Positions 1 to 59,468 of a stretch of 64,000 nucleotides of DNA are shown here, piece by piece. The stretch comes from an uncultured Candidatus Saccharibacteria bacterium. GTDB lineage: Bacteria; Patescibacteriota; Minisyncoccia; Phycocordibacterales; XYD1-FULL-46-19. The stretch lies in NCBI GenBank assembly GCA_964639285.1, contig CAZXCI010000001.1:142305-206304 (forward strand), read 5' to 3'. The position numbers were made by a program, and so were the translations under genes. The notes beneath the pieces were generated by a model. That model was not told the origin of the DNA, did not search any database, and saw only the letters and a program-made list of their open reading frames with translations. Every line of letters begins with the position of its first letter. The first letter of the stretch is position 1.

Positions 1-88
1 GCCAAATCCGGTGAAGATTAATAAAATCCCAATAATACCAAAAGCGACCGAGGCATAAATAAATGTGAGTGTAGCTATTCTCTGCATA
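1..88 (-). CDS. partial small membrane protein; N-terminal 29 aa (MQRIATLTFIYASVAFGIIGILLIF...), ORF runs off the window start
   Basis: ATG at 86-88 on the minus strand, hydrophobic translation with no stop before the window edge; follows ORF 97..285 in the same orientation. Confidence 0.25.
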
Positions 89-96
89 TAATTGTA

Positions 97-285
97 TTAA
101 CTAAAATAAATAAGGTAACCAATAAAGAGTGCTAAGATAATATACCAAGCTGTCCAACCTTTGGTGAGAGGCAGGTAACGTTTGAAAAACTTAATATTAT
201 TCCAATAATCTCGATTGCCACACCAAGCAATATAACCAGCAACTAAACTGTCGATTATTAGAAGCCAAAAAATAATTTGTAACAT
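97..285 (-). CDS. hypothetical small membrane protein (62 aa)
   Basis: ORF track; two predicted hydrophobic helices; no recognisable family. Confidence 0.3.
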   Translation of the reverse strand: MLQIIFWLLIIDSLVAGYIAWCGNRDYWNNIKFFKRYLPLTKGWTAWYIILALFIGYLIYFS

Positions 286-369
286 AATTAAAATATTCTG
301 ATTAAGCTAATAGGCCTCGACTCGTCTAATTGTAGCATAACTTGAGCAGAGTCCATCAATTGGGATAAA

Positions 370-405
370 AAGAAAACCGCCTCCAACGGTTTTCGTTGTG
401 GGCGG
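370..405 (-). terminator. putative intrinsic terminator downstream of ORF 409..603
   Basis: minus-strand GC hairpin TCCGCC...GGCGG followed by TTTTCTTTTTAT. Confidence 0.45.
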
Positions 406-408
406 ATT

Positions 409-603
409 TTACCCAAAGAAAAGATTTCGAAAGGTGCCATTAAGGGGGATAATTCTCCCTCCTATTTGGTGGCAATGTTCCCGGTCTTGGGGTTCTTTGT
501 CTGGGTTGGGGCAGAGCCCTTCCATTTTCAGACTCTCTTGGTTCTTGCTTAAAGAGGTCACCTTGAGACACTTTAAACAATCAGGTATGTTAGTGTTCAC
601 CAT
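409..603 (-). CDS. hypothetical small Cys/His-containing protein (64 aa)
   Basis: ORF preceded by a strong SD (AAGGAGGG about 8 nt upstream of ATG) and followed by a hairpin plus T-tract; has CxxC and HCH motifs. Confidence 0.45.
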   Translation of the reverse strand: MVNTNIPDCLKCLKVTSLSKNQESLKMEGLCPNPDKEPQDREHCHQIGGRIIPLNGTFRNLFFG

Positions 604-1410
604 TTTCTCTCCCTCCTTCTGGGGCTTAGGTTTTATTCTCTAAAAAAGAAAAACACTCTGTTTTCATTTCTACCATATTTGCCACCGGGAAACAACAAAG
701 ATAAGTAATTTTAAAATAAGGTTTGTTATAGAATAGGGCATATGAAGAAAGCCCTCATAATTTTAGTTGTATTTATTGTTTTGTTGTTTGTCCCACTAAT
801 TTCTCAAAAAGCTCCTGTTGTTTGTGTCAAAGCGCCGTGCCCAGAATATGTGGTCTTCCACATTTCGATTTTTGAGTATATTGCCTCTACGTATTTTAAT
901 TGACGAAGCTCTCACTTGTTCAAGAATGAAAGGATTGAATACAAATAGCAGCTCTGGAGGGGTTAGAGATCATCTTTCTACTCCCTAGAAATGGACATGA
1001 ACATTGCCGTCAGCCTTCTTTTAAAATCTTCATTGGGAGAAAGATGTTCAATAATGCCCTGACTTCTTCCGACCTCTTCATACCCTTTATTGTCTATCGG
1101 ATGATTTGAACCAGTTACATGGTTTAAGAATACCAGCATTGCTTCTTGTCTCTTATTTAATTTTGAGCCCTCCTTGTCTTCGGAAGGATTGATCCCTTCT
1201 AAGTTCATATTTATTCAAATTATTTTATCAGCAACATTAATAATAGGTTAATTATAGCAAAATATGAACAGAAAAAGAAGAAAGGCTGTCCGAACCTGGA
1301 TAGGGGAGAACGAAGGCCTTTATTTTTTGTTGTTGGGGTAAAAAGAAAATCCCGCACTTAGACATTTTAGCTAATTCGAAAGCTTTCTAAGGTTATGCTA
1401 AAATAGCTCT

Positions 1411-1896
1411 GTGATTAAAACCAATATTTATATTGACGGCAATAATTTATATCGTGGGGCCAAAGAGCTTGGGTTTGAGATTGATTATAAAAAATTTTAT
1501 GGTTGGCTTCGGCAAAAATATGGCTCAGATAATATTTATCTTTTTGTCGGCTTAGTCCCAACCAGAACCAAATTTTACGAACATCTCCAAGAATGTGGTT
1601 TCATTTTAATTTTCAAACAAACTGTTTCGGTTGGGGGAGTGGTCAAGGGGAATTGCGACGCCGAACTGGTGTTAAAAACTGTTTCTGATTTTTATACTAA
1701 AGCATTTGATAAATGCATTCTAGTTTCTGGTGACGGCGATTTTGGTTGCCTGGTAGAATTTTTAGACGATAACTCTGTTTTGGATCGAATCATTTCTCCT
1801 GATGAAAATAAATGTTCAATTTTACTAAGAAACAAAAATACCGAGATTACTTTTCTCAATGAACATTACCATAAGTTTTCTCGAAAATCGCCTTAA
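1411..1896 (+). CDS. NYN-domain (LabA/DUF88-like) PIN-fold putative ribonuclease, GTG start
   Basis: motifs IDGNNLY, NCDAELV and SGDGDF are typical of NYN/LabA-like domains. Confidence 0.65.
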   Translation: MIKTNIYIDGNNLYRGAKELGFEIDYKKFYGWLRQKYGSDNIYLFVGLVPTRTKFYEHLQECGFILIFKQTVSVGGVVKGNCDAELVLKTVSDFYTKAFDKCILVSGDGDFGCLVEFLDDNSVLDRIISPDENKCSILLRNKNTEITFLNEHYHKFSRKSP

Positions 1897-2087
1897 ACCC
1901 TAACCCTAAAAGAAAAAGCCCCCGATGCAGACGTATCTACATAAGGGTCTCTTTCATAGTTATACTAATATAGTATACTTTTTATACAAATTGTCAATTT
2001 GTTCTAATTGGGCTCCGATGCTTGTTTTTGTCGCTTAAGAGCGAAGAAGGAGAGAGAAAACTAGAACTTATATGTAATTGAAAAATT

Positions 2088-3104
2088 TTAATATTTGCGT
2101 TTCTTAAGTTCTTTCTTGGCTGTTTTCATAAACTTTCCAAAGTCACGATCTTTTTCTCTTTTTTCAAGTTTATTCATTTCAAAATATTCAGCTTCCTTTT
2201 TTAGACTAATATAATTAGAATAGTGAGCTTTGTTTAATCTGCCCAAATCTAGAGCCGCTAATACTGCGCACCCAGATTCTTGGACATGGGTACAATCTTT
2301 ATATCTACATCTCTCTGCTAAGCTGGCTATCTCATCAAAGAAGTAATTTATCCCAACAAGATTGCCAGTCATCCCAACTTCGCGCATTCCGGGGTTATCT
2401 ATCACAATTCCTCCATTTTCTAAAAAATACATCTCTCTTTTTGTTGTGACATGTCTACCTCTGGTAGAGTGGGCTGAGATGTCTTCGGTTCTCAAGATGT
2501 TCTTCCCAAGCAATCTATTAATCAACGATGATTTGCCAACGCCAGACGAGCCGAGGAAACAATAGGTCTGGTCTTTTAAAATATGTTTTTTAAGATCATT
2601 TAAATCATTATCATCTATGATACTCGTTAGGATAACCTCTGTATTTTTAAACCTATTTTTTATTTGAGACAGAATTAGATCTAATTCTTCTTGAGAAATT
2701 AAATCGATTTTATTTAACACAATGGCTGTCTCAACCCCCCCATCATTAGCAAGAGCAAAATATCTTTCAAATCGATTGAGATTGAAGTCTCGATCAACCG
2801 ATTCAACGACGAAGGCTTTATCGATATTTGTCGCGATAATCTGCGATTCATTTTTATTATTGCTTTTTCTTTTTAGCATTGTCCTTCTTGGTAAAACTTT
2901 CTGAATCACGGCATTTTCTTGATCAGCCATACTAATAGCCACCCAGTCACCGACAGCTGGATAGTCCTCTCTAGATAGAGACTCAAACATTTGCTTTCCT
3001 GTTATTTTAGCAAAATATTCTCCAGACAAATTTTTTACCTTATAGGCTCCTCTATATTCAGCGACCACTCGCGCCTTTGTTGTTTCATTATTTGTTCTAT
3101 TCAT
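2088..3104 (-). CDS. rsgA: ribosome small-subunit-dependent GTPase A (RsgA/YjeQ)
   Basis: circularly permuted GTPase order NKID (G4) - GSSGVGKSS (G1) - DNPG (G3); N-terminal OB region; C-terminal Zn finger CRYKDCTHVQESGC. Confidence 0.85.
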   Translation of the reverse strand: MNRTNNETTKARVVAEYRGAYKVKNLSGEYFAKITGKQMFESLSREDYPAVGDWVAISMADQENAVIQKVLPRRTMLKRKSNNKNESQIIATNIDKAFVVESVDRDFNLNRFERYFALANDGGVETAIVLNKIDLISQEELDLILSQIKNRFKNTEVILTSIIDDNDLNDLKKHILKDQTYCFLGSSGVGKSSLINRLLGKNILRTEDISAHSTRGRHVTTKREMYFLENGGIVIDNPGMREVGMTGNLVGINYFFDEIASLAERCRYKDCTHVQESGCAVLAALDLGRLNKAHYSNYISLKKEAEYFEMNKLEKREKDRDFGKFMKTAKKELKKRKY

Positions 3105-3185
3105 TCATGGTCAATATACCAAAAATTCCTCAGAGGTTCTACGTCATATTAAGGGTATACAAAAAAGTCATGGCTTTTTAGTGCA

Positions 3186-3388
3186 AAAAGAAAAGCACCA
3201 GTGAAGCAATTCTTCCATAAGCGAATGCTTATGAGTGGGCGGTGTGAACAAGGCCTTGGGCGACCAAAACTTGCTCATGGGCCATTCGCTCGCCACTACT
3301 AGGCCCCCACAACTGGTGCTTTGGCTAACTCTCGTGCTCTAGGCACAGGGCAGGGGTAGCCATGTCCCCACCCGACTGACACCCACAT
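3186..3388 (-). ncRNA. candidate structured non-coding RNA (GC-rich island, class unassigned)
   Basis: roughly 200-nt GC-rich block in AT-rich intergenic DNA. A perfect 10-bp helix (3194-3203 with 3312-3321) encloses a domain with nested perfect helices (gcgaatg/cattcgc, atgag/ctcat, GGGG-N9-CCCC). On the minus strand a TTGACT -35 box lies upstream and TTCTTTTT follows the closing helix. Strand is tentative. Confidence 0.35.
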
Positions 3389-3423
3389 TAGTTTTTATTT
3401 TTTAAAAAGTCAAACAGCAAACC

Positions 3424-3443
3424 CCCTACCAGCTGGTAGGGGG
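3424..3443 (-). terminator. intrinsic terminator of ORF 3454..3849
   Basis: perfect 8-bp stem CCCCTACC-AGCT-GGTAGGGG directly after the stop, followed on the minus strand by a T-rich run. Confidence 0.6.
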
Positions 3444-3453
3444 TAAAATCACA

Positions 3454-3849
3454 TCAAAAAATTCCGCATTCCGCTGCACACTGGCTCGAACAGTATGGGG
3501 AATAATTTCCGGAAAAAAATTGGCAATTGCATCTTGGACAGATTCCTCCCGTCGACGGCACCTCTCCTTTTTTGTGATGGGGTAAAAATCCAGAGAGAAC
3601 CTGAATTTCTACATCAATCTCCAGTGCCTCGTTTAAGGCCGAGGCAATCTTCGCGGCTTCTTCCCCGTCGGTATCACGGACAACGAGATAAGGTGAGTCT
3701 CGATGTTGTTCCGACATATCAAGGCAACAGAGATCTGGACTGAAAGTAATTACTCCCTCGTCTGCCTTTATCCCCAGATCAGTCACAATTTTCGAGATTT
3801 CACTACAGATACCAATTGAACTATGACCGACGATAACTATGTTGGGCAT
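3454..3849 (-). CDS. hypothetical protein with C-terminal zinc-ribbon (CPRCNC...C...CAAEC)
   Basis: ORF track; small alpha/beta-like N-terminal region plus a Cys cluster; own terminator. Confidence 0.5.
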   Translation of the reverse strand: MPNIVIVGHSSIGICSEISKIVTDLGIKADEGVITFSPDLCCLDMSEQHRDSPYLVVRDTDGEEAAKIASALNEALEIDVEIQVLSGFLPHHKKGEVPSTGGICPRCNCQFFSGNYSPYCSSQCAAECGIF

Positions 3850-4033
3850 AAAATCACCTCCTTTCTGAGGTTAAAAAGTCTAGTTCTCGATACAAAAAAC
3901 TTCCGTCTATATTTCTGACAGATTATATACAATTAATCAATAGTTGCTAGTATTTTGCTAGCGTTAGGCTCTGATGCCTGTCCTCTGTCGCTTTAGAGCG
4001 AAGGGGGGTGGAAGGAAGTTAGAACTTGTCTCT

Positions 4034-4555
4034 TTAACTTGAAAATTCAATAGCCAGGCCTTTGGCATAACGAAAACGGCCAAGAAATTTGATAAGGGAG
4101 AGAGCAATGTCATATTTTGTCCCTTCTGAATTCTTGCCAATTTCTAACTCGTCGATCTTTATACTGTGTTTGTCAGTCATAATGGATAATGTTCCAGAAC
4201 GTTCTTTTTCCACAATGGAGTTTAGAATCTTTTTCTCCTTGTCAGTTAGATGCATCTTGCTAACTAATTCGCTGTATTCGAAGACAGAGTTTTCATATTC
4301 TCCACGTTCAGTGACAAGATCTGCCACTTGATTCAAAGCTAAGCCTTGATCAAAAAGCTGTTTAATATTTTTGGCTAGTTCTTTAGCTTTCTGGTTGATT
4401 TCACCGCCAATTTCCTCGGCCGAAACACCAAGGGCTAAGAGGTAAGAAATTTGAAGGTCAGAACCGCTAATCTTGTTGGCAATGACAAAATCTCTTAGTT
4501 GAGCAATTGATTCTTGTCCGTTTTGGTGTTCTTCAAATCTAATTATTGATTCCAT
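4034..4555 (-). CDS. hypothetical acidic protein (173 aa), member of the cassette-like array
   Basis: ORF track; conserved promoter motif TTTTTGATATAATT upstream; conserved 3' flank element downstream. Confidence 0.5.
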   Translation of the reverse strand: MESIIRFEEHQNGQESIAQLRDFVIANKISGSDLQISYLLALGVSAEEIGGEINQKAKELAKNIKQLFDQGLALNQVADLVTERGEYENSVFEYSELVSKMHLTDKEKKILNSIVEKERSGTLSIMTDKHSIKIDELEIGKNSEGTKYDIALSLIKFLGRFRYAKGLAIEFSS

Positions 4556-4627
4556 TTTTTATTATTTTTAACTTATCAACTTTTGTAATAATTAAATTAT
4601 ATCAAAAATCTCTCAACGATTCTATGT

Positions 4628-4664
4628 CCCTGCCCGCATTGCTATGCAAAGCGTTGCAGGCGGG
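4628..4664. repeat. GC-rich hairpin element 'core A' (CCCTGCCCGC-N18-GCAGGCGGG), copy 1
   Basis: 37-nt sequence identical to 8028..8064, inserted into different flanking repeat backgrounds; related copy in reverse orientation at 44402..44428. Confidence 0.6.
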
Positions 4665-5116
4665 CTACGAGAGGTAGCCAAAAACACGTTGTAAAATAAA
4701 GAGAAAAAATAGGTTCCGATGAATAGAAAAAGTTTTTACTACTTTTGTGTAGAGATGATTTTACTATCATTAATTACTTCAATTGCTTTAAAATTAAACT
4801 GGTTATTATAAACCCAAACCCCGATAAGATAGAAGCAATATCATAAGATAAGATACTTCCATTATCAATGATATTTATTAACCCATTGAATATTAAAAGA
4901 CCGGCGATAATAAATAATAAAATAATGAATAGTTTGTTCATTTATATTTTATCTAAAACTTATATAATTATATTTTGCCACAATCTCTTAAAAAATTCGA
5001 GTGTCTTATTTGAAAGAGGGATACAAAATAACCCCCGCTTTAAGGGCTATTTTAGTCTGCTAGCAAAATGCTAGCAATGGCTCCGTTGGGTAGAGAGAGT
5101 TGGAACCTATTTTGTC

Positions 5117-5983
5117 TTATTCAGACGATAAAGTCGGGGTCGAGCCATTATCAAAAACGGTGATCTTTGTCGACTTGCTAATTATATCTGTAGGGCCAGT
5201 AATTCCTAGATCATTAAGTTTAAAGTCTTTGACCGTAATACTATTACCAATCAATGTCGCTCGAATAGTTCTATTTTTTGAACCGGCATCAACCTCAGCT
5301 CTAAGAGCAATATCTACCCATTTATCTTTGAAAAATCCAATGTAGAATTGTTTAAAATGAAAATCAATCCTGCCTGATTCTGAAATCATATCAGTATCTA
5401 ATATTGAGACCCCAGGCTGATCGTCAACAATCTCTATCTTAAAGTTGCGAAATAAATCGGGATCGTAATTTTCAACGTTAAAACTCAAAGTGTGAAGCAT
5501 AATATCCTGATGTGGCCTTAAACTGAAGTTTCCCAAAATGATATTGTTACCCGTTGGGGATATTTTAAAAGTTTGAGTCGGCTCCTGATTTGGACTTAGT
5601 CGTGTATCTACTATAACTAAATTGGTGGCGCTTTCATTTGAAGCGTCGACCGAACTTGTTTGAATCATTGGTTTCTGATCTAAAACTTTAGGAGTTGTTT
5701 CTTTTTTTTCAGCACTATTCTTCTTTTGAGAATAGGTCTCTGTTTGATCTATGTCTTGAGGTGTTTCTGTGGGATTCCTTAAATCTTGATCTATGGGTTC
5801 CTTAACCTTTGTCTGTTGACTTTTTGATCCTATCGCTGGGGTAGTAGAGGCAATAGGAAAAATTTTTCCTTTGAAGAAAAAACTTGAGAAGATATTCCAA
5901 GAAAGGGGATTCCACCAAGAGGCATTAGTTAAAAAGGGGATAGAAACAATTAATAAAAGGAAAATTATTGATATCTTTTTCAT
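5117..5983 (-). CDS. hypothetical secreted protein (288 aa, signal peptide)
   Basis: N-terminal MKKISIIFLLLIVSIPFLTNA signal-like segment; conserved promoter and 3' flank elements. Confidence 0.55.
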   Translation of the reverse strand: MKKISIIFLLLIVSIPFLTNASWWNPLSWNIFSSFFFKGKIFPIASTTPAIGSKSQQTKVKEPIDQDLRNPTETPQDIDQTETYSQKKNSAEKKETTPKVLDQKPMIQTSSVDASNESATNLVIVDTRLSPNQEPTQTFKISPTGNNIILGNFSLRPHQDIMLHTLSFNVENYDPDLFRNFKIEIVDDQPGVSILDTDMISESGRIDFHFKQFYIGFFKDKWVDIALRAEVDAGSKNRTIRATLIGNSITVKDFKLNDLGITGPTDIISKSTKITVFDNGSTPTLSSE

Positions 5984-6087
5984 ATCATTGAATTATATCA
6001 AAAGTCTTTAACCCTATCTAGGTGTCTGCTAGCAAAAAGCTAGCAATTGCTCCGTTGGGTGGAGGAAGTTAGAAATTCTTTGACGAC

Positions 6088-6609
6088 CTAATTACCCACA
6101 GAAACTTTTATCGTACTTGAGATCACGCACTCATGTGATTCATCGAACGGTGTGCTTAAAATTGGGGAACATTTGTCTGTATCCCAGACCTTAAAAAGCA
6201 AGGTGTAATCATATGGTTTAAGATAGGCATAGGTGTGACTGAAAGAAATAGGTTTTGATTGATCATAGAGAACAGAAAAAGGGCCCTCAATACCATCTTC
6301 GCCTTCACCTCCCCACTCGATCTGATATTTTAAATTTGCCCCAGTTGGTGCCGTGATATTTGCTGTCCACTTGCCAGTCTCACCAATTTTAAGTGAGGTG
6401 GGCCCAGAGATAGAATCTATTGATAATTGAACAACCTTTTCGTCAACAATAGTATTGTCATCATTTTCTTTTAGTGAATTATCAGAAGAACTGTCGACTA
6501 GTTCATTGGGTGTAGTAGATTTTTCGTCGCTGACCTTTTTAAATACAAAATAATAAACTCCGCCGACAATCAAAATCAAAGTAACAACTCCAATTAAATA
6601 TTTTTTCAT
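6088..6609 (-). CDS. hypothetical secreted or membrane-anchored protein (173 aa)
   Basis: N-terminal TM/signal segment; promoter GATTTTTGATATAATT upstream; 3' flank element downstream. Confidence 0.55.
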   Translation of the reverse strand: MKKYLIGVVTLILIVGGVYYFVFKKVSDEKSTTPNELVDSSSDNSLKENDDNTIVDEKVVQLSIDSISGPTSLKIGETGKWTANITAPTGANLKYQIEWGGEGEDGIEGPFSVLYDQSKPISFSHTYAYLKPYDYTLLFKVWDTDKCSPILSTPFDESHECVISSTIKVSVGN

Positions 6610-6892
6610 TTTAATTTTTACTATTTAATAATTGGCTTAATTATATCAAAAATCCTCTAGCGATTCTACATCCTATTCGGGGTCACCAAAAAACATATTG
6701 TAAAATAACAAGAAAAAATTGGCTCGCTTGGCAGTCTGCGTTTCGAACTTATGATTGGAGTATGGCCATAGGCGATCTTAAGACAACAACCAAGGAAATC
6801 AACTATTTATTGTCTTTAGTTTGATTATACTCTCGGTAGGGGTGGGGTACCCCCAGATATTTGGTTCCATGTTTTGTATATAAACAACAAAC

Positions 6893-6952
6893 CCGCCTCG
6901 CTCACACGACGACTTGGGTTTGTCGCGGTGTTCGCGGGCGGGGCTAGTCTAC
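6893..6952 (-). terminator. terminator-like GC hairpin repeat (paralogue of 8165..8217) overlapping the stop of ORF 6944..7231
   Basis: AAACCCGCC...GGCGGGGCT hairpin followed on the minus strand by TTTGTTGTTTAT; same element about 1.3 kb away. Confidence 0.5.
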
Positions 6953-7231
6953 GTCAGGGGATTTTGGCTGAGAGAACTCCTCAAAAAGACCGATCGCTAC
7001 AAAACACAAAAAGAGGAACGCGAACCCCAAGACGTAAGGCAAAGGGTCTGTCACCCCACTGAGGGGTAAGAGCATCCCTAAGAGAAAACCGACGAGAAGA
7101 TTCTCTTTGAGCCCCATCTCCCAGGGGTTCTTCGGCTGTTTCCTCTTTATGTAGCTCACCACAAGGCAAGCGATAAGAGAAAGAATAATGTAGCCAAGAG
7201 CGGACAAGAGGTGGACGAAGATAATGTTCAT
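6944..7231 (-). CDS. hypothetical small membrane protein (95 aa)
   Basis: ORF track; three hydrophobic segments; the last two codons and stop (V-D-stop) lie inside the repeated terminator element. Confidence 0.4.
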   Translation of the reverse strand: MNIIFVHLLSALGYIILSLIACLVVSYIKRKQPKNPWEMGLKENLLVGFLLGMLLPLSGVTDPLPYVLGFAFLFLCFVAIGLFEEFSQPKSPDVD

Positions 7232-7456
7232 TTGGTATATCCTTTTCTGTTGAGGAACGTTTCAATGTCTAATTTGATCATAGCACTTACAATGTACTTT
7301 GTCAATATCTTAAATTTAATTTTAAGTTCGGACGTTCTTTTCGGGGTACAAAAATAACTCTTGTTTTAAGGGCTTCAATTTGCACTTCTGCCTGCCGGCC
7401 TCAGTGTCTTCCTTGTCTCCACTCGTTGAGCTCCGATGGGCAGAGGAGGTCCGAAC

Positions 7457-7990
7457 TTATTTTTTATAAAAACTATTATCAGATGCCGTAATCTGTATCA
7501 ACGCATTTCGAAGTGATTCTTCGAGACTGACCTCTCTTAAGATTGCTCCCCCAGAATATGTCCCCCAAGTATCATTTGGAAGTTTTCCAAATTCTTCCTC
7601 AATTAAATGCATAACATCACAGTGCTCCATTTTAAGTTCGTTCATTTTCTGGAGAATATAATCGGGTACCTTTAAACCGCTTGAGTATCCATAGAATTCC
7701 TTTCCATTTTTATCAATTATGGCTGTCCAAGCTTCCTCGTAAATATGTCCATAACGCTCAATTAGGCCACTTTCAAGCCCAATAAAAAAGTCAGCACCAG
7801 GCTCAGTGTTCTTAGCACCTAACGCTCGATTTCTTGATCCGTCGTAGGTTTGTTTATCGTAAGGGGTATCTGGTACTTTTGAATCTGAAGGACAACCCTC
7901 AACAGACACTGGCCCAGTGAATAATTGACTCACGACTTTTTGAGTAATTAAAATTTTTCTATCACTGGTTGAACCAAGAATAATTCTCAT
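7457..7990 (-). CDS. yjjX: non-canonical purine NTP pyrophosphatase, YjjX/DUF84 family (inosine/xanthosine triphosphatase)
   Basis: VSVEGCPSDSKVPDTPY...GSRNRALGA...ADFFIGLESG matches the YjjX signature block (AVESGVPEQPFG...GARNRV...ADFWVAIEAG). Confidence 0.7.
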   Translation of the reverse strand: MRIILGSTSDRKILITQKVVSQLFTGPVSVEGCPSDSKVPDTPYDKQTYDGSRNRALGAKNTEPGADFFIGLESGLIERYGHIYEEAWTAIIDKNGKEFYGYSSGLKVPDYILQKMNELKMEHCDVMHLIEEEFGKLPNDTWGTYSGGAILREVSLEESLRNALIQITASDNSFYKK

Positions 7991-8027
7991 GGCGTAATTC
8001 TATCAAATTTCGAATTAAAGTTCGAAC

Positions 8028-8064
8028 GTCCCTGCCCGCATTGCTATGCAAAGCGTTGCAGGCG
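8028..8064. repeat. GC-rich hairpin element 'core A', copy 2
   Basis: identical 37-mer to 4628..4664. Confidence 0.6.
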
Positions 8065-8164
8065 GGTCTACTCGGGGTACAAAAACAACCCTTATTTTAA
8101 GGGCTATTTTCACGAGCTCCGATGGATACATAAAGTTCGAACCACACTTATCTTTTCATAAACA

Positions 8165-8217
8165 ACAAACCCGCCTCACAACTGACAGCGGGTTGCTGTG
8201 GTTGTGGGCGGGGCTAG
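8165..8217 (-). terminator. terminator-like GC hairpin repeat (paralogue of 6893..6952) overlapping the stop of ORF 8214..8525
   Basis: AAACCCGCC...GGGCGGGGCTAGTCGAC; supplies the V-D-stop end of the upstream ORF. Confidence 0.5.
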
Positions 8218-8525
8218 TCGACAAGCGACCAGTCGATTTTGGCGAAGATGTCTTTGGTATCATACTCGCCATTTCCGCACATCATCAGGAAGAACGGAAG
8301 GAGGCTGGTGAGTTTCTCGGGATCGGCTTCGACCGTCTGGATGAACAATGTGCGTGTCAGGCAGGTATAACTCCCGTCACTGGAACCGGTGTACTTGCCA
8401 CTTGGCACGTGCACAGCCCTAACGAGTTCACCCCTGATTTCCTCTCGGCGTTCTTTCGAACAAGTCGGCGAGGAAGCCTCGATAACGAGATTCTTGATTG
8501 TTTGCTGGGACAACTTGCTAGCCAT
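8214..8525 (-). CDS. hypothetical protein (103 aa), second gene of a GC-richer two-gene module
   Basis: ORF track; about 50 % GC versus about 36 % in the neighbouring cassette genes; start overlaps the end of 8518..8841 by 8 nt. Confidence 0.4.
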   Translation of the reverse strand: MASKLSQQTIKNLVIEASSPTCSKERREEIRGELVRAVHVPSGKYTGSSDGSYTCLTRTLFIQTVEADPEKLTSLLPFFLMMCGNGEYDTKDIFAKIDWSLVD

Positions 8526-8841
8526 GACACATTTCCTTCTTGTCGGTTAAGCCAAGAAAGCCCAGCAATTTCTCGCGCCGTCTCTCGTCTTTAGCCAACA
8601 GTTCACGATCGTACGAGATGATCTGACGACGATGGTCGTGACGATCTAGCTCGAACTCCGATCCGTAGTCAACGGCACTGTCGTGGATCGAATTGTTCAA
8701 CCTCTCGCCGTGTTCAATCTCTTTGGTAAGCGTGGCAATTTGCCGATCCAAGAAAGCAAGTTCTTTTTGCCACTTGGCTCTCCTCCGTTCCTTCCACCTC
8801 TCAATCCAAACACGAAGAAACCACATCTTTCTATCCTCCAT
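8518..8841 (-). CDS. hypothetical charged/coiled-coil protein (107 aa)
   Basis: ORF track; Arg/Glu-rich; overlapping arrangement with 8214..8525. Confidence 0.4.
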   Translation of the reverse strand: MEDRKMWFLRVWIERWKERRRAKWQKELAFLDRQIATLTKEIEHGERLNNSIHDSAVDYGSEFELDRHDHRRQIISYDRELLAKDERRREKLLGFLGLTDKKEMCHG

Positions 8842-8920
8842 GGGTTAGACTCCAGTTTTCAACACAAAAACACTCTATCTATAATGTTAGCATATATAGA
8901 TAAATATGTCAATACCTTGC

Positions 8921-8992
8921 TCCGCGGGTAGGACTCGAACCTACGACCAACCCGTTAACAGCGGGCCGCTCTACCAACTGAGCTACCGCGGA
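8921..8992 (-). tRNA. tRNA-Asn (anticodon GTT)
   Basis: cloverleaf from the reverse complement: acceptor UCCGCGG/CCGCGGA, D-arm GCUC..GAGC, anticodon stem-loop GCCCG-CUGUUAA-CGGGU (U33, GUU, A37), T-arm GUAGG-UUCGAGU-CCUAC; CCA not encoded. Confidence 0.9.
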
Positions 8993-9061
8993 ATCTATAA
9001 ATTCTAAATGAACACGGCCTTCCAATTGAGGCTCCTAAATTTTAACAAAAATAATACAAAA

Positions 9062-9075
9062 TGCAATATTGCATA
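9062..9075 (+). promoter_or_regulatory. perfect 14-bp palindrome ATGCAATATTGCAT overlapping the extended -10 (TGCATAAT) of the ECF sigma gene
   Basis: read directly from the sequence; operator-like position. Confidence 0.35.
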
Positions 9076-9095
9076 ATTTGTGATTAAATGATCCA

Positions 9096-9641
9096 ATGGA
9101 AAAAAAGGAAGAATTGACGATTGAGAGGATTGTCAAAGAGTATCTAGCAATAATTTACCGTTTTGCCTATCGCTTGACGGGGGACGAAGCTGACGCCAGG
9201 GACATTGCTCAGGAGGTAATGGTGAAGGTCTGGAAGAATTTAGATAGGTTCGACGAGAATCAGGGCTTCAAGCCCTGGCTCTTCAAAATTGCTCGAAATA
9301 CGGCTATTGATTGGCTTAGGCGACGCCGGCAAATTCCTTTTAGTCAACTAGCTTCTACTGACGAAGAGGGGAATCAAAAAGATTTTTCTGAAAATATTGC
9401 CGACTTGGAATTATTACCGGACGAGATTTTTGCTCAGTCGGAGGTTAAGGAAAAGTTCAAACAGGCTCTTGGGGCGGTCCCCTTAGCCGAGAGAGAAATT
9501 CTCGTTCTTCATTTAGAAGAGGGGTTAACTTTTGATGAAATCTCTAAGATCGTAAAACGGCCTCTTAACACGGTGAAGAGTATTTACCGGCGATCTCTCT
9601 TTAGGTTGAGGGCCCTCTTGGTTGAAATTGCACCAAAATAG
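9096..9641 (+). CDS. RNA polymerase sigma-70 factor, ECF subfamily
   Basis: region 2 (ARDIAQEVMVKVWKNLDRFD...FKPWLFKIARNTAIDWLRRRR) and region 4 HTH (LAEREILVLHLEEGLTFDEISKIV). Confidence 0.85.
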   Translation: MEKKEELTIERIVKEYLAIIYRFAYRLTGDEADARDIAQEVMVKVWKNLDRFDENQGFKPWLFKIARNTAIDWLRRRRQIPFSQLASTDEEGNQKDFSENIADLELLPDEIFAQSEVKEKFKQALGAVPLAEREILVLHLEEGLTFDEISKIVKRPLNTVKSIYRRSLFRLRALLVEIAPK

Positions 9642-9674
9642 CGCTAATCGGCGTATCTAAAAAATAAGAGGTTT

Positions 9675-10085
9675 ATGAGCAAGAATATCAAACAATTATT
9701 TGAAATTACCCAGATTTCCGCTCCCGGGGCTGATTTGGAAGCAAGGGTTTTTTCTCGTATCGAAAAAGAAAAAAAGTTCTTGGCTCGTCGTAGCCTCTTG
9801 ATTTTTACCTTGGCTGATGTCTTGTCGGGGGCTGGTTTGGTCTTGTCTTTTTCCTATTTATTCAAATTGTTGGCAACTTCTGGATTCTATCATTATGCCT
9901 CTTTGTTCTGGTCGGACTTGGGGACGGCGAGTCTTTATTGGCAGGAGCTACTCTTGTCATTGGTTGAATCATTGCCAATGTTGGGGGTCATCGCTTTCTT
10001 GATGGTTACGCTAGTTTTAATTTTTTCTTTAGCCAAAACTGTTTCAAATTTTAAATTATTTTATTATCAAGTTAATCCTGTTTAG
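9675..10085 (+). CDS. putative membrane anti-sigma factor (136 aa)
   Basis: located immediately downstream of the ECF sigma gene; cytoplasmic N-terminus then TM helices; no sequence signature. Confidence 0.4.
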   Translation: MSKNIKQLFEITQISAPGADLEARVFSRIEKEKKFLARRSLLIFTLADVLSGAGLVLSFSYLFKLLATSGFYHYASLFWSDLGTASLYWQELLLSLVESLPMLGVIAFLMVTLVLIFSLAKTVSNFKLFYYQVNPV

Positions 10086-18277: not shown

Positions 18278-18832
18278 ATGATAGAAGAAGAGAAAAATCT
18301 TGCCCGACGCTTGTTTATTGCCCTCCCAGTGGAAGGATCTCTGAGGAGTGATGCTCTCACTTGGCAGGCTGACCATGTCGCTTGGCCGGTATCTTGGCTC
18401 TCAGGGGAGAGTTTCCATATTACCGTTGTTGCTCCCTGGCTGGAGACTGATGTTGACTTGATTATTAGGAAATTAGATGAATTCGCTAGTAAACCTCGCA
18501 ACACTTTCTTCATTGATTTTAATAAGGTAGTTTTTGGTCCTAACCGTCAAACGCCTCGACTTGTCTGGGCTGAGGGTAACCCACCTCAATCTCTGCTCAA
18601 ACTTAAAGATGATATCGAGGTAACTCTCAATCGGCCTGACCCCCGTTTCTATCGTTTGCACTTAACTCTAGCTCGCTTCAAAGCGCCAGATTTTGGTCCA
18701 ACTTTGCCGAACCTCTATGACCGAGTAGATTGGGGCGGGGAGATTAAAGGTTTTACCTTGATCGAATCGACCATGACTCCCGACGGTCCCACTTATACCA
18801 AAATCAAAGATTTTTCTTTTGCCGGCTTATAA
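18278..18832 (+). CDS. thpR: RNA 2',3'-cyclic phosphodiesterase (2H phosphoesterase, LigT/ThpR)
   Basis: two H-x-T-x motifs (FHITVV and LHLTLA); the start is probably the internal Met (MIEEEK) rather than 18242. Confidence 0.7.
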   Translation: MIEEEKNLARRLFIALPVEGSLRSDALTWQADHVAWPVSWLSGESFHITVVAPWLETDVDLIIRKLDEFASKPRNTFFIDFNKVVFGPNRQTPRLVWAEGNPPQSLLKLKDDIEVTLNRPDPRFYRLHLTLARFKAPDFGPTLPNLYDRVDWGGEIKGFTLIESTMTPDGPTYTKIKDFSFAGL

Positions 18833-21753: not shown

Positions 21754-22263
21754 ATGGTTTTAACTCCTCATGCTGTCGTCGGTGCTGCTCTTGCTTCAGC
21801 CTTTGGGCTTGGTCCTGGGGGCGCTCTGGTTGCCGGTTTTGTCAGCCACTTCTTGTTGGATAGTCTTCCGCACTGGGATTACAAATTAAGTTCGGCAAAT
21901 ATCGACGAGGAGAATCCTTTTAATGACGATATCCCCATAAGTCGAAAATCTCTCCGCGATTGGGCGAAGATTGGTTTGGACTTGGCTCTTGGGCTAGGCC
22001 TTATCTTCCTCTTCTTTTCTCTGAACGGGCAAGGTGTCAGAGTTGTCAGTCTGTTGGCAGGGGCGCTAGGCGGTCTTTTGCCCGATGGATTGCAGATTCT
22101 CTTTATGAAATTACGTCGCGAACCACTAAAAACTTTTTTTCGTTTTCATCTTTTTATGCACTCACCTCGACGGATTAGAGACACTCTTTGGGGCCCTTTT
22201 TGGCAAGGGATAATTCTTCTGCTCGCACTTATACTCGGGAATTGGAGCTTCTTTATTTGGTAA
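21754..22263 (+). CDS. membrane-bound metal-dependent hydrolase-like protein (YdjM/DUF457-like)
   Basis: multi-TM protein with a SHFLLDSLPHWD motif. Confidence 0.45.
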   Translation: MVLTPHAVVGAALASAFGLGPGGALVAGFVSHFLLDSLPHWDYKLSSANIDEENPFNDDIPISRKSLRDWAKIGLDLALGLGLIFLFFSLNGQGVRVVSLLAGALGGLLPDGLQILFMKLRREPLKTFFRFHLFMHSPRRIRDTLWGPFWQGIILLLALILGNWSFFIW

Positions 22264-22825
22264 TAAAGGTATCTACTTTACCTATAAGACCAGTAGCGTC
22301 ACCTTCGATTCCGGTAACCTCACCTTCTAAGCCGGAGACTTCACCGGTAATACTAGTGACATTGCCGCGTATTCTAGATGTATCGCCAATTAGGTTTGTC
22401 ACGTTGCCAGAGATCTCAGTGACGTCACCTTGGATACTTGAGACATCGCCAATTAGGTCGCTAACATTTCCTTTGATCTTGCTAACATCACCACGGATAT
22501 TGGAGACATCACCACGGATATTGGAGATATCACCATAGAGTCCAGAAATGTCTCCGCTGACATTTGTTGTGTCTCCTGTGAGGTGGGTAACGTTGCCACG
22601 GATATTGGAGACATCACCACGGATATCACTGACTGTTCCAAAAATGCCACTAATGTTCCCGCTGATATGGCTTGGGTTGCCGATAATCTGGTGGAGAGTG
22701 ACATCGCCATAGATCTTAGATACGTCACCGCGGAGCTTGGAGAAATCTCCCCAGATAGCCTCGTGAACATTCTCGACATTATCGGTATTCTCTTTAATTT
22801 TTGGATTAACTCTTTGTAGGGCCAT
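22253..22825 (-). CDS. tandem heptapeptide-repeat protein (about 20 repeats of G-[DN]-[VIT]-[ST]-x-[IL]-x)
   Basis: translation shows consecutive GDVSNIR/GDVSKIK/GNVSDLI/GDVSSIQ... units; the DNA has the matching 21-bp periodicity. Confidence 0.6.
   Translation of the reverse strand: MALQRVNPKIKENTDNVENVHEAIWGDFSKLRGDVSKIYGDVTLHQIIGNPSHISGNISGIFGTVSDIRGDVSNIRGNVTHLTGDTTNVSGDISGLYGDISNIRGDVSNIRGDVSKIKGNVSDLIGDVSSIQGDVTEISGNVTNLIGDTSRIRGNVTSITGEVSGLEGEVTGIEGDATGLIGKVDTFITK
22290..22760. repeat. imperfect 21-bp tandem repeats (coding; encode the heptapeptide repeats)
   Basis: visible periodicity in the sequence, e.g. repeated GATATTGGAGACATCACCACG units. Confidence 0.6.
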
Positions 22826-24410: not shown

Positions 24411-24445
24411 CTCAAAAACCCTTATTGTGCGATATCCAATCTCGC
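24411..24445. terminator. bidirectional terminator hairpin between convergent gpmA and eno
   Basis: CCCTTATTGTGCGA-TATCCAATC-TCGCACAAGGG; its first 20 nt (CAAAAACCCTTATTGTGCGA) recur at 44382..44401. Confidence 0.55.
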
Positions 24446-24469
24446 ACAAGGGAAAATGAGTTTAGAGGT

Positions 24470-35497: not shown

Positions 35498-35581
35498 ATT
35501 AATCAGCTCATACTTCTAAAAAGTCCTCGGATCTCCTCACTCCGTTCGGCCAGACATTTTTATAAGAATGAGCTGATTAAT
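35498..35581. repeat. composite element: perfect 14-bp inverted repeat (ATTAATCAGCTCAT / ATGAGCTGATTAAT) enclosing 'core B' (AAAGTCCTCGGATCTCCTCACTCCGTTCGGCCAGACATTT)
   Basis: core B recurs at 55647..55686 and 55724..55745 and partially at 45651..45663, there with different flanks. Confidence 0.6.
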
Positions 35582-44375: not shown

Positions 44376-44401
44376 AAAACCCTTATTGTGCGAGACCCGC
44401 C

Positions 44402-44428
44402 TGCCTAGGCATTTCGGGCAGGTTGGAT
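44402..44428. repeat. 'core A'-related hairpin element (reverse orientation, shorter loop) inserted into a terminator-like inverted repeat
   Basis: CCCGCCTGC-N11-GGGCAGG has the same termini as the reverse complement of core A; flanks TGTGCGA / TTGGATATCGCACA are halves of the hairpin seen intact at 24411..24445. Confidence 0.55.
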
Positions 44429-44460
44429 ATCGCACATTTTATGCTATAATGTAAAGACTT

Positions 44461-54629: not shown

Positions 54630-54941
54630 ATGTTTGCTATTATCGAAACAGGAGGAAAGCAGTACAAGGTCGCCGCTGGTGACTCTTTAAAGGTGGAAAA
54701 ACTGGCTGAAGCGAAGGAAAAAGGGGAGGTTGTTTTCGACAAAGTTCTCATGATCGCCGATGGCGACAAGGTCAAGGTTGGCACCCCTTATCTTGAGGGA
54801 GCGACGGTTACCGCCAAGTTTGAATTAGAGGGCCGAGCTAGGAAAATCACTATTATCAAGTACAAGGCTAAGTCCAATTACCGCGTCAAACAGGGTCATC
54901 GCCAAACTTTTACTAAAGTCAAAATTGAAAAAATCGCCTAA
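54630..54941 (+). CDS. rplU: 50S ribosomal protein L21
   Basis: [18 protein letters not shown]. Confidence 0.9.
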
Positions 54942-54973
54942 GGGGCGATTTTTTCAATCTGCCTGGTGGAGTT

Positions 54974-55612
54974 TTAGCTACGGTTTTTGAGGGCATTTTT
55001 GATAGTCTCGGGGTCAGCGTACTCGAGCTCGCTCCCCGTGGAAAGACCTCGGCCAAGAAGAGAAATCTTGAGGCCTGCCCCAGATGGAGTCGGGGGATTA
55101 GTTACGTTGCGTAATTTATTGATCAACCAGTCAGTGGTATGGTCACCTTCGGTAGTGGCCGAGAGAGCAATGATTACTTCTTTTAGTCCGTCTTCTTTCT
55201 GCCGTCTTTTTAGTTCCTTTAAGAGGGGAAAAAAACGAATATGGTTCTCTGGTTCGGGGTCAAGAATAGGGACATTGCCACCAAGGACAAAATAATAGCC
55301 GTTATAAATCTTGGCCCTCTCGATGGCATCGAGATCAATATCTTTCTCGACAATAAGAAGACTTGATTTGTCTCGTTGTTCATCAGCACAAATTTTGCAT
55401 TTATCAGTCTGAAGTGGATAACCATTACTGAAGAAGCGACCACAGGAGAGGCATTGCTTAATATCTTTCTTAATATTTTGAACCTTCTCCCCCAGCTGAT
55501 TGAGATAATTTTGATCAGTTGATAATAAATAATAGACAAAACGTCGGGCTTGGCGAGGACCGATACCGGGGAATTTTTTAAACAAATCAGTTAGTGAATT
55601 TATTGTTTCCAT
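54974..55612 (-). CDS. recR: recombination protein RecR
   Basis: HhH (LFKKFPGIGPRQARR), C4 zinc finger (CLSCGRF...CKIC), Toprim; start taken at METINSL. Confidence 0.9.
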   Translation of the reverse strand: METINSLTDLFKKFPGIGPRQARRFVYYLLSTDQNYLNQLGEKVQNIKKDIKQCLSCGRFFSNGYPLQTDKCKICADEQRDKSSLLIVEKDIDLDAIERAKIYNGYYFVLGGNVPILDPEPENHIRFFPLLKELKRRQKEDGLKEVIIALSATTEGDHTTDWLINKLRNVTNPPTPSGAGLKISLLGRGLSTGSELEYADPETIKNALKNRS

Positions 55613-55623
55613 TTTTGCCTTCG

Positions 55624-55710
55624 GGGCAAGAAATGTTGTTTTTAAAAAGTCCTCGGATCTCCTCACTTTGTTCGGCCAGACATTTTAAAAAAACAACATT
55701 TCTTGCCCCT
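55624..55710. repeat. composite element: perfect 21-bp inverted repeat (GGGGCAAGAAATGTTGTTTTT / AAAAACAACATTTCTTGCCCC) enclosing core B copy 2; partial third copy at 55724..55745 abutting the dnaB stop
   Basis: read from the sequence. Confidence 0.6.
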
Positions 55711-55751
55711 TCGTTAAATTTTAAAGTCCTCGGATCTCCTCACTTCTATTT

Positions 55752-57107: not shown

Positions 57108-57204
57108 GCTCTTATTCTACCATAGGGCGAAACTTAAAAGAAAAGCCCCAAAATCGCATAATTACCAGCAATTTGGGGACAAAAAGTGTACAAGCTGTTT
57201 CCAT

Positions 57205-58464
57205 TTAGGCTAATTTAAGCCCCAAAACTTGGTCGAATTTGCTGATGAGGTCGAGCTTTTGGGCGGGGGAGAGATCTTTGGCTGAGAGTACAGATTGAAG
57301 TGAGGCGAGGGCGGAGGCGGTGTTGAGAGAGGAGATTTTTGTGGTGAAGTTGGAGAGAAAAATTTCTTGAGCTTCCCGAGGAGAGACCTCGGCCTGCCCG
57401 CAATGCTTTGTAACGCAAGGCAGGCGGGGCTCACTAGAGGACTCACCTCCGGAAGCTTGGGCTTCGTCGGCAATTTGGGCAATTTTCTTCTTCAAATTAT
57501 CATAACCCTTCTGGGCGGCTTCGAGGGACTCCCAAGTAAAATTAACTTTTTGTTTGTAATTTGTCTGGAGGAGAAGGTAACGGTAGGCGAGGGGATTGTA
57601 GCCCTTTTTCTCTAAATCTTCTAAGGTAAAAATATTGCCTAAAGATTTGCTCATCTTTTTGTTGTCGACAAGGATGTGCTCGGAGTGGAGCCAAGTCTCG
57701 ACAAATTTGTGACCAGTGAGCGCCTCACTCTGAGCAATCTCGTTGGTATGGTGGGGGAAAATTAAATCGACACCACCGGTATGGATATCGGTCACCTCGC
57801 CTTTGAAGGCGATCTCGTTGATCGCCGAGCACTCAATATGCCAACCGGGCCGGCCTTCGCCTAAGACGGGATGGGGCCAGAAGATGTTGGCGTCACCTAC
57901 TTCGTGCGCCTTCCAAAGAGCAAAATCGCTCAAATTATCTTTCTCATACTCGTCTACCTTAACCCGCGCCCCAATCTTCTTCCCCTCTAAGAATTTCTCC
58001 CCAACTAGTTCACCATAATGGCCAAAGTCTTGTTGGTATTTCTCGATGTTGAAGTAGGTGCTCCCGTCCTCAGCCTTATAAGCATAGCCTTTATCAATTA
58101 GTTTAACGATGAAGTTTTGAATTTGGGGAATAACGTCGCTAACCTTAAGAAGTTCTATCTCAGAAACAGAGACATTTAATTTTTCTAAATCTTGGAGAAA
58201 TATCTTAGTGTATCTCTCTGTATATTTTTTTAAATCCTCCGTCCCAGTTTCTTGGCCAAATTCTTCGATAGTGTTACGAATAGTTTTGTCGTCAATGTCG
58301 GTGATGTTCATTGCCCATTTAGGGCTTCGTCCTTCAAATTTTTTGGACCGAAAGACAAGATCGGCGAAAACGTAAGATCGCAGATTGCCAATATGGGCCA
58401 TATTATAAACGGTTGGCCCGCAGGTGTATAAGTTGAGAGCAGATTTTTGGGGGTTTAGATCCAT
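57205..58464 (-). CDS. cysS: cysteine--tRNA ligase
   Basis: HIGN and KMSKS motifs; N-terminal CGPTVY. Confidence 0.9.
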   Translation of the reverse strand: MDLNPQKSALNLYTCGPTVYNMAHIGNLRSYVFADLVFRSKKFEGRSPKWAMNITDIDDKTIRNTIEEFGQETGTEDLKKYTERYTKIFLQDLEKLNVSVSEIELLKVSDVIPQIQNFIVKLIDKGYAYKAEDGSTYFNIEKYQQDFGHYGELVGEKFLEGKKIGARVKVDEYEKDNLSDFALWKAHEVGDANIFWPHPVLGEGRPGWHIECSAINEIAFKGEVTDIHTGGVDLIFPHHTNEIAQSEALTGHKFVETWLHSEHILVDNKKMSKSLGNIFTLEDLEKKGYNPLAYRYLLLQTNYKQKVNFTWESLEAAQKGYDNLKKKIAQIADEAQASGGESSSEPRLPCVTKHCGQAEVSPREAQEIFLSNFTTKISSLNTASALASLQSVLSAKDLSPAQKLDLISKFDQVLGLKLA

Positions 58465-59441: not shown

Positions 59442-59468
59442 GGGGATAGTTTGCGATAATAGAGGGTA

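Follow-up and report, generated by a model that had tools for sequence, protein, structure and literature searches.

A small GC-rich DNA hairpin in Patescibacteria and other bacteria, and its association with minimal GIY-YIG nuclease cassettes

An imperfect GC-rich palindrome of about 36 nt (hereafter referred to as E; consensus CCTGCCCGCAATGCTACGCATAGCGTTGCAGGCGGG, arms CCYGCCYGC / GCRGGCRGG) is present in four copies in the 64-kb window, i.e. the whole stretch of 64,000 nucleotides that was analysed, and belongs to a family that occurs in well over 100 species. E is added precisely at the DNA level and without target duplication, retains its hairpin through compensatory changes and regularly accompanies a minimal GIY-YIG nuclease gene in cis. 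It is very probably a mobile selfish hairpin acting at the level of DNA. The best explanation overall, held with moderate confidence, is that E represents a trans-mobilised hairpin mini-element of a selfish GIY-YIG cassette.

A search of the window for the exact 37-mer CCCTGCCCGCATTGCTATGCAAAGCGTTGCAGGCGGG identified two sites, 4628-4664 and 8030-8066, and no match was obtained across 100 shuffles of the window. The arm pattern CCTGCCCG-N5-30-GCAGGCGGG identified four copies, with none expected by chance, and a covariance model run with the filters off over the whole 64 kb detected no E copy beyond these four. The first-pass annotation of this DNA, made from the sequence, had described three copies, consisting of the exact 37-mer pair and a shorter copy in reverse orientation. 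Both the pair and the short copy are real, but the second 37-mer had been placed at 8028-8064, off by 2, and the short copy at 44402-44428 instead of 44396-44422, while the fourth copy at 57393-57428 had been missed. The 9-bp imperfect outer stem that it had proposed for the ends of the element is indeed formed, with one G.T and one C.A. The four copies, the gene hosting the fourth and the unoccupied homologues of the other host sites are listed below.

4629..4664, plus strand: E copy 1 (36 nt; 58.3 bits), with its unoccupied counterpart at 6672|6673
8031..8066, plus strand: E copy 2 (same sequence as copy 1), with its unoccupied counterpart at 7335|7336
44396..44422, minus strand: E copy 3 (short 27-nt form; 34.4 bits), with its exact unoccupied counterpart at 24439|24440
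57393..57428, plus strand: E copy 4, 36 nt, in-frame in cysS, 52 bits
57205..58464, minus strand: cysS (cysteine--tRNA ligase), host of copy 4; Pfam tRNA-synt_1e, 7e-87
6640..6725, plus strand: unoccupied homologue of the copy 1 host repeat; junction 6672|6673 = 4628|4665
7316..7379, plus strand: unoccupied homologue of the copy 2 host repeat; junction 7335|7336 = 8029/8030|8067
24419..24452, plus strand: unoccupied homologue of the copy 3 host hairpin; CCCTTATTGTGCGA-TATCCAA-TCTCGCACAAGGG

The repeats interrupted by copies 1 and 2 are modules that recur upstream of small minus-strand genes, copy 1 being located about 75 nt upstream of the gene at 4034-4555 and copy 2 41 nt upstream of an NTPase gene at 7457-7990. 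TATAAT promoter-like boxes are found directly downstream of both. Copy 3 occupies the loop of a terminator-like hairpin (44380-44436) downstream of a YkuD gene. No T-run flanks any of the four copies on either strand, so that none qualifies as an intrinsic terminator. The G+C content of the window is about 43%, and its sequence resembles that of a Patescibacteria (CPR) genome. Rfam 15 assigned only two tRNAs in the window at the gathering score and no family at E, either at gathering or at permissive thresholds (E-value up to 10). The 354 ORFs of the window include neither a GIY-YIG nor a Y1 gene, in agreement with the earlier statement that no Y1 transposase is encoded here, and the four E copies are solo copies without a nuclease gene in the 64 kb.

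Collinear, uninterrupted versions of the repeat backgrounds had also been reported in the first-pass annotation; a comparison of the occupied and the empty sites, with the junctions of the empty homologues in part read by eye, located exact junctions in them. For copy 3, the junction 24439|24440 (TGTGCGATATCCAA|TCTCGCACAA) corresponds to the exact flanks of the 27-nt element, and these flanks are identical at the two loci. The insertion point in the terminator loop reads CCAA|TCTC, and the identity of the 20 nt preceding the hairpin, claimed earlier for the two loci, extends over 19-20 nt. Target duplication was observed at none of the three resolvable window sites. The identity between copies 1 and 2 exceeds E itself, with GTC at the left and (T)CTAC at the right, and their right flanks are homologous; the two copies may therefore descend from one insertion, which was duplicated with, or converted between, paralogous upstream modules of about 100 nt. 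For this pair only, such an origin is a serious possibility, rated a little below even. The left flanks of the two copies are, however, unlike (GATTCTATGTC vs GTTCGAACGTC), and two further modules of the same families as their hosts are empty.

Copy 4 is located at about codon 345 of the 419 codons of cysS, and the gene is intact on both sides of it. The copy is read through as RLPCVTKHCGQA, which is added to the linker following the catalytic domain. The 12 residues encoded by E are absent from all the 21 closest CysS homologues (65-82% identity), which read SSSEP|EVSPRE without a gap at this site; the named close homologues (about 72% identity and below) belong to Candidatus Paceibacterota. 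In the DNA, the copy adds 36 nt between GAGC and CCGAGG, without loss or duplication. Its interior has diverged with compensatory changes, from A16-U26 to U16-A26 and from U17.G25 to U17-A25, and the frame used contains no stop codon, in particular not the TAG that the other window copies would carry there.

The extent of the family was examined by scanning one genome per species with the pattern CCTGCCCGMAWTGC-N1-25-GCAGGCGGG, which identified at least 120 loci; about 2 chance matches are expected for such a scan, by our own estimate from the pattern and the size of the collection. About 46 of the 80 matches listed belong to many lineages of Patescibacteria, including Nomura-, Sacchari-, Paceibacterota, Microgenomates, Berkel-, Falkow- and Moranbacteria and others. 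Another 13 of the 80 are from MAGs of the PVC group (Verrucomicrobia, Kiritimatiellia, Lentisphaerae; locus G+C 0.54-0.60) and 13 are from low-GC MAGs labelled 'uncultured Gammaproteobacteria', while a few of those listed resemble chance hits in high-GC genomes. E is not a species-specific REP, but part of a cross-phylum superfamily. The 126 copies collected comprise 84 sequence variants, with lengths of 36 nt (72 copies), 39 nt (21 copies), 37 nt (11 copies) and, for the rest, 24 to 48 nt. A model search of 658 kb of E loci identified about five copies besides the one by which each locus was ascertained, and the copy number per genome is therefore modest; with 4 copies in 64 kb, the window is rich in E by comparison. 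E was also found in 15 IMG/VR contig stretches, some of which hold three to five identical copies, and when the consensus was searched by BLAST, neither GenBank phages nor PLSDB plasmids gave a match.

In the predicted fold, an unpaired 5' tail of 4 nt (CCTG/CCCG) leads into a stem of 12 bp, which is interrupted by two small internal loops and capped by a loop of 3 nt. The arms are uninformative on covariation because they are fixed by the search pattern. In the interior, the pair 16-26 occurs as U-A (14), A-U (13), G-C (4) and G-U (2), with a covariation score reached by 0 of 500 shuffles, and the second helix (8-14 with 18-24) is backed by the pair 11-21, which is A-U in 21 cases and U-A in 6. 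A plain 14-bp hairpin (1-14 with 23-36) was rejected, as 26 of 38 variants have no pairing at 11-26 and its score is lower than those of the shuffles. Two 'mutually exclusive' inner hairpins acting as a switch were also considered, and are better explained by mirror-image forms of E. The reverse complement of the CATTGC..CAAAGC form, to which window copies 1 and 2 belong, scores 37 bits against the model, and folding with DNA parameters predicts that it folds like the canonical top strand; the E family therefore has two mirror forms. Both strands of the window 37-mer fold, and on these predictions either strand of any E copy can fold.

E is tolerated in spacers, in hairpin loops and in protein linkers, where it is translated. 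Nearly a third of the copies (41 of 126) are found inside stop-free frames of at least 40 codons on each side, read as PARNASHSDAGG (n=22), as LPAMLRIAMQAG (n=10) and in three other ways, in genes such as lepA, an aminoacyl-tRNA synthetase and the N-termini of ribosomal proteins. About ten further copies are located in the first 35 codons of long ORFs or just upstream, and many copies lie in variable K/E-rich linkers or AT-rich spacers. Variants that compensate in the stem yield different peptides (SHSD, THSV, AHSA), and the constraint is therefore on the nucleic acid and not on the protein. E as a primarily coding module was rejected on the same ground, and also because four different frames are used.

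The flanks of E carry no conserved target motif or tetranucleotide, although a bias is seen, with A at -1 in 51% of the copies and few A at +1. The element had earlier been described as repeatedly landing inside pre-existing palindromes. A weak tendency of this kind exists, as flanking inverted repeats of at least 8 nt are seen in 6.4% of 125 copies against 1.4-2.1% in two controls, but it is not a rule. Flanking direct repeats of at least 8 nt, of variable length, are found in 11.2% of the copies and in 1.2-2.7% of the controls. For 7 of 125 E copies, and for 1 of 2415 controls, the target is also present uninterrupted at a distance of at most 700 nt, and the five such sites inspected in detail are tRNA D- or T-loop fragments. 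Other hairpins are nested in the loop of E at four loci (L126, L141, L145 and L148).

Genes associated with E were searched for by all-against-all clustering of the ORFs over 120 E loci. The clusters are mostly of housekeeping genes; besides these, two small families recur, an IS200-like Y1 family (PF01797) and a GIY-YIG family (PF01541). The GIY-YIG protein is a stand-alone protein of about 78-90 aa, matching Pfam PF01541 at 5e-16, and for five of the nine such genes in loci ascertained by E, the distance from the start to an upstream E is 130 nt or less. Ascertainment independent of E was achieved by searching metagenome contigs with the GIY-YIG protein alone (a 3-sequence alignment), which yielded 71 distinct loci. 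A hairpin of the E superfamily is located 9-58 nt upstream of the start codon in 45 of these, with arms in the E orientation in 12, reversed in 16, symmetric (CCCGCCCGC/GCGGGCGGG) in 12 and mixed in 5, and several of the remaining loci carry more diverged hairpins of a similar kind.

In 36 of the 45 loci, the gene directly after the GIY-YIG stop codon is intact, and a duplicate of its 5' end, 25-50 nt in length, is split by the hairpin. The architecture of the cassette is thus A-E-B-ORF-A-B-C, as exemplified by locus L176 with the layout TGGGGAGTGGTGTAA-E-TGGTAACACACC-gacaat-ATG...stop-att-TGGGGAGTGGTGTAATGGTAACACACC..., the final part of which is tRNA-Gln. The tRNA hosts of the cassettes are those for Gln, Asn, Lys, Thr, Leu, Val, Ile and Met; the few protein-gene hosts are hit in conserved motifs, among them a GGAGFIG Rossmann motif, a glycosyltransferase N-terminus and the DLGTTNS motif of dnaK. 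The position of the hairpin in the tRNA 5' fragment varies from after about nt 5 to nt 19, mostly in the D arm, and either orientation is found. Cassettes lacking the ORF (A-E-B-spacer-A-B-C) also exist, adjoining tRNAs and dnaK, as do cassettes at the 3' end, with the hairpin in the T loop. The intact target persists in the functional gene copy directly downstream of the cassette.

The GIY-YIG proteins consist of the catalytic domain only, without a DNA-binding domain. Profile searches identified the UPF0213 proteins 1zg2 and 1ywl and SLX1, a structure-specific endonuclease, as the closest solved relatives, with I-TevI behind. The family comprises at least 7626 clusters, and every named cluster belongs to Patescibacteria; the E loci labelled as PVC showed no GIY-YIG gene.

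The GIY-YIG nuclease probably mobilises E, although confidence in this step is only somewhat better than even. An enzyme made elsewhere in the genome may recognise and cleave folded hairpin or cruciform DNA, with the cut falling either in E or in target loops such as the D and T arms of tRNA genes and terminators, and E would then be installed by host repair or ligation. GIY-YIG enzymes hydrolyse DNA and have no joining activity, and ligation or repair steps must therefore be assumed. A one-sided duplication may sometimes accompany E and thereby rescue an essential gene. The four copies in the window would be non-autonomous members, related to the cassettes as REPs are to RAYTs. A point against such a mechanism is that simple homing logic fails to explain why an uninterrupted target is kept in the intact host gene. 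The association with the cassette could also reflect selection and not catalysis, a hairpin that breaks a direct repeat serving to stabilise the cassette.

More tentatively, the hairpins and the gene of about 78 aa may together constitute a previously unrecognised class of prokaryotic mobile element. In such a class, the cis-element of a structure-selective nuclease of the SLX1/UPF0213 type would be a DNA hairpin in its folded state. The nuclease would settle at the ends of conserved genes, in tRNA D/T arms and nucleotide-binding motifs, and the gene end would be duplicated rather than the gene being split; trans-mobilised hairpins of 36 nt would become new peptide segments in essential CPR proteins. 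Searches of open-access full text, by sequence words and by topic, returned no published description of E, nor was one found there of a cassette combining a GIY-YIG gene, a hairpin and a split duplicate. The connection between E and GIY-YIG cassettes that carry the host-gene end as a split duplicate thus appears to be undescribed.

The solo copies of E might alternatively be by-products of the homing or recombination of GIY-YIG cassettes and not be independently mobile, since conversion from an 'A-E-B' donor, or deletion between the duplicated B segments, would leave E at an old cassette site. The A-E-B-ORF-A-B-C architecture predicts solo copies free of target duplication, and both the ORF-less versions next to tRNAs and dnaK and the ten or so copies near the starts of long ORFs fit this route. 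The cassettes, however, duplicate only 25-50 nt at gene ends, which does not suit the copy deep within cysS, and neither the terminator loop of copy 3, nor the hairpins nested in E loops, nor the linker and spacer copies represent cassette sites. As copies far from gene ends or in loops cannot be explained in this way, the by-product route is ranked second and considered unlikely. A very low probability is given to E being a structured element useful to its host, such as an RNA stabiliser, a terminator/insulator or a protein-binding site, that is maintained by selection and spreads only secondarily. The strong conservation of the arms across phyla (imposed in part by the search pattern), the covarying stem and the positions of copies 1 and 2 just upstream of TATAAT-like boxes and of copy 3 in a terminator are consistent with such a role. 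Both orientations of E are nevertheless found beside the same gene family, and essential genes that are unrelated to one another contain E within their coding sequence, in several reading frames; no T-run follows it, no Rfam family matched it, and the closest cysS orthologues are without it.

A further alternative, that E is REP/REPIN-like or derived from IS200/IS605 and is moved by a Y1 HUH transposase (RAYT/TnpA) encoded elsewhere, is improbable. E shares with REPs and REPINs the size (20-40 nt), a GC-rich imperfect palindrome, an unpaired tetranucleotide and the absence of target duplication, along with dispersed solo copies, a hairpin-flanked protein-coding 'master' locus and occasional intragenic copies (PMC3733652). 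The likeness to REP/BIME or IS200/IS605-RAYT elements proposed in the first-pass annotation accordingly stands for the small GC-rich hairpin and its precise insertion, but not for the tag, the fixed target or the linkage to Y1. REPs are marked by an unpaired tetranucleotide, GTAG or CGTC, located at one of the palindrome's ends (PMC3733652). No more than 5 of 126 E copies have either motif 7 nt or less from the correct end, which is about chance, and no conserved nucleotide motif is present 5' of the insertion. A PF01797 Y1 protein is encoded in 5 of the 120 E loci, but the distance of these five genes from E is 0.6-3 kb, and four of them have flanking palindromes of their own, which are lineage-specific and bear no relation to E; the window, too, is devoid of a Y1 gene. 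REPs are mostly lineage-specific, extragenic and high-copy, and often occur as inverted pairs, whereas E is one sequence family in many phylum-level lineages, has a third of its copies translated (the 41 of 126 in ORFs), occurs as singletons in the window and rarely has a second copy, and has a GIY-YIG nuclease as its partner in place of a Y1 HUH transposase. The IS200/IS605 mini-elements (PATE-like) have a fixed tetra- or pentanucleotide target and distinct end hairpins, in contrast to the single hairpin of E and its lack of a target motif. E therefore resembles a REP-type mini-element in its working, yet lies outside the REP/RAYT and IS200/IS605 families.

Comparison of E with other known systems reveals partial likenesses. 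The arms of E can be read as 14-bp TIRs of a DDE-type MITE, but the fixed-length target duplication is absent at the three resolvable window sites. The Rickettsia palindromic elements (RPE), reportedly described by Ogata et al. 2000 as 'selfish DNA in protein-coding genes', resemble E in being palindromic repeats located in-frame in essential genes and translated as an extra surface peptide. Compared by description, they are about 100-150 bp long, confined to Rickettsia and without a known partner enzyme, whereas E is 24-48 nt long and nuclease-linked. The GC clusters of yeast mtDNA and the double-hairpin elements of fungal mtDNA are short GC-rich palindromes in AT-richer genomes that, like E, enter spacers, other repeats and occasionally genes in-frame, and no mobilising activity is known for them. 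They differ in being organellar and unrelated in sequence to E, often with short target duplications, and in having no adjacent nuclease cassette.

Free-standing homing endonuclease genes show a likeness to the cassettes themselves. SegB of phage T4 is a free-standing GIY-YIG homing endonuclease gene in a tRNA gene cluster, and genes of this type share with the E-ORF units the location of a GIY-YIG gene beside tRNA genes, the use of conserved host genes as landing sites, probable spread by break repair and the catalytic domain itself (PF01541, E = 5e-16). Unlike homing endonucleases, the cassette proteins lack a separate DNA-binding domain and are closer to UPF0213/SLX1 than to I-TevI; moreover, the target is not lost but remains intact beside the cassette, with a hairpin upstream in 45 of 71 loci and a split duplicate in 36. 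Integron gene cassettes are similar in combining a small promoterless ORF with an imperfect palindrome (attC), a folded palindrome with extrahelical bases being what would be recognised as the substrate in both. The E cassettes are, however, devoid of an integrase, attI and arrays, have the hairpin upstream of the ORF and are unrelated to attC in sequence and size.

If the proposed association of E with the nuclease is true, CPR/Patescibacteria would possess an equivalent of the REP-RAYT system that is their own and uses another enzyme fold, and a testable function would be available for the large uncharacterised family of GIY-YIG (UPF0213-like) proteins of about 78 aa. It would also account for a source of short insertions, specific to particular lineages, that recur in essential proteins such as aminoacyl-tRNA synthetases, LepA and the N-termini of ribosomal proteins. 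Invasion of an essential gene by means of a hairpin-split duplicate of its end, with the gene left intact, would differ from the strategies of introns and inteins, and a minimal pair of hairpin and nuclease with precise, scarless insertion would be of interest for the development of genome-editing tools.

Near-identical strains from other samples carry the same E copies. Exact-protein look-ups detected no presence/absence polymorphism of E among near-identical strains, L121 and L221 both carrying E; the exact-protein look-up of the YkuD protein of the window returned no record. Logan contigs of near-identical strains often end inside E, including copies 1 and 2, in keeping with E being a repeat, and if the proposed reading is right, E would account for some of the assembly breaks in CPR metagenomes.

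The linker of CysS that hosts a copy of the mini-element E, a GC-rich hairpin of about 36 nt, carries further repeated sequence. The palindrome CCGAGGAGAGACCTCGG, which codes for ..EVSPRE.., directly adjoins this copy (E copy 4) and belongs to a repeat family of the window (D12):

57371-57394, 55031-55054 and 18322-18345: palindrome CCGAGGAGAGACCTCGG and its relatives

The corresponding peptide, SRGESSSEPEVSPRE, is found repeatedly among the CysS homologues and, therefore, the linker hosting E may itself be derived from another repeat. Short insertions other than E are also shared by CysS homologues scattered over the phylogeny (alignment columns 189-196, 222-229 and 383-400): GAGSTGSPQ occurs in five and GFDKLT(T/A)G in two of the 22 aligned sequences, and WWQRLF/FFKSLLAK-type segments occur in the linker that hosts E. 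As judged from the alignment, these recurrent insertions look like additional families of translated mini-insertions.

Outside the window, E occurs in several copies at some loci. In IMG/VR, three to five identical copies are present on related putative viral contigs whose G+C content is about 0.5 (L206-L220, e.g. UViG_3300024048_000009), and several of these copies are flanked by the direct repeat TCTGTGTCC; such flanks would be a 9-nt duplication, and none was seen at the E sites of the window. Four copies lie within 8 kb in a ribosomal protein operon of a Saccharibacteria MAG (L010), several being read through within N-terminal extensions, e.g. MGKTKIIPARNASQSDAGGEEK...; by visual inspection, the products of the ORFs bearing them resemble ribosomal proteins and might be S9- and S11-like.

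Among the 71 loci found through the GIY-YIG protein alone, a stand-alone nuclease of about 78 aa and the proposed partner of E, the hairpin is absent in 11 (L173, L181, L183, L185, L191, L195, L197, L198, L201, L202 and L204). There the GIY-YIG gene is nested within another gene, which from its flanking translation looks like that of a four-helix-bundle protein of the 23S rRNA intervening-sequence type, and the GIY-YIG gene is directly preceded by (C)CTGCCC(T/G)GTTAAATAGCTTGAGG, the start of which resembles the left arm of E. This arrangement is a different one and possibly intron-like. IS200-like/RAYT-like Y1 genes in four loci (L028, L068, L094 and L095) are each framed by their own lineage-specific palindrome, such as CCCAAATTTGCAAGCCCGTCGGGCTTGCAAATTTGGG in L068; thus, CPR genomes hold classical REPtron-like units beside the E system.

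Positions 4000-8150 of the window hold a series of small minus-strand genes (173, 288, 173, 95 and 177 aa). In front of every one of them lies a repeated module of about 100 nt bordered by (A)AGTTCGRAC palindromes. A contig of a different sample (L121, positions 4274-6534) is 99.9% identical, but its gene content left of window position 6717 differs and includes a TfoX_N protein. By sequence comparison, the region looks like a cassette-swapping hot spot. An ORF of 182 aa without a Pfam match (8046-8594, plus strand) has its start ATG within E copy 2 and may be spurious; it equals L121:2397-2945, where a gene is called on the Logan contig.

Near 8 kb, genes turn from minus to plus (region 1-10000) and the cumulative GC skew reaches its minimum, so that a replication origin could be located here. 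In the region 54900-59500, the skew stays positive even though dnaB (55752-57107) and cysS belong to a block of minus-strand genes. Other repeats of the window are:

35514-35565 and 55640-55691: 52-nt repeat, 90% identical (families D7/D10), unrelated to E
55723-55745: partial third copy of this repeat, 77 nt away
22301-22758: diverged repeat (family D1), eight in-register copies at 21-nt spacing

The D1 copies lie inside overlapping ORFs (22253-22825, minus strand) and probably encode a repeat protein.
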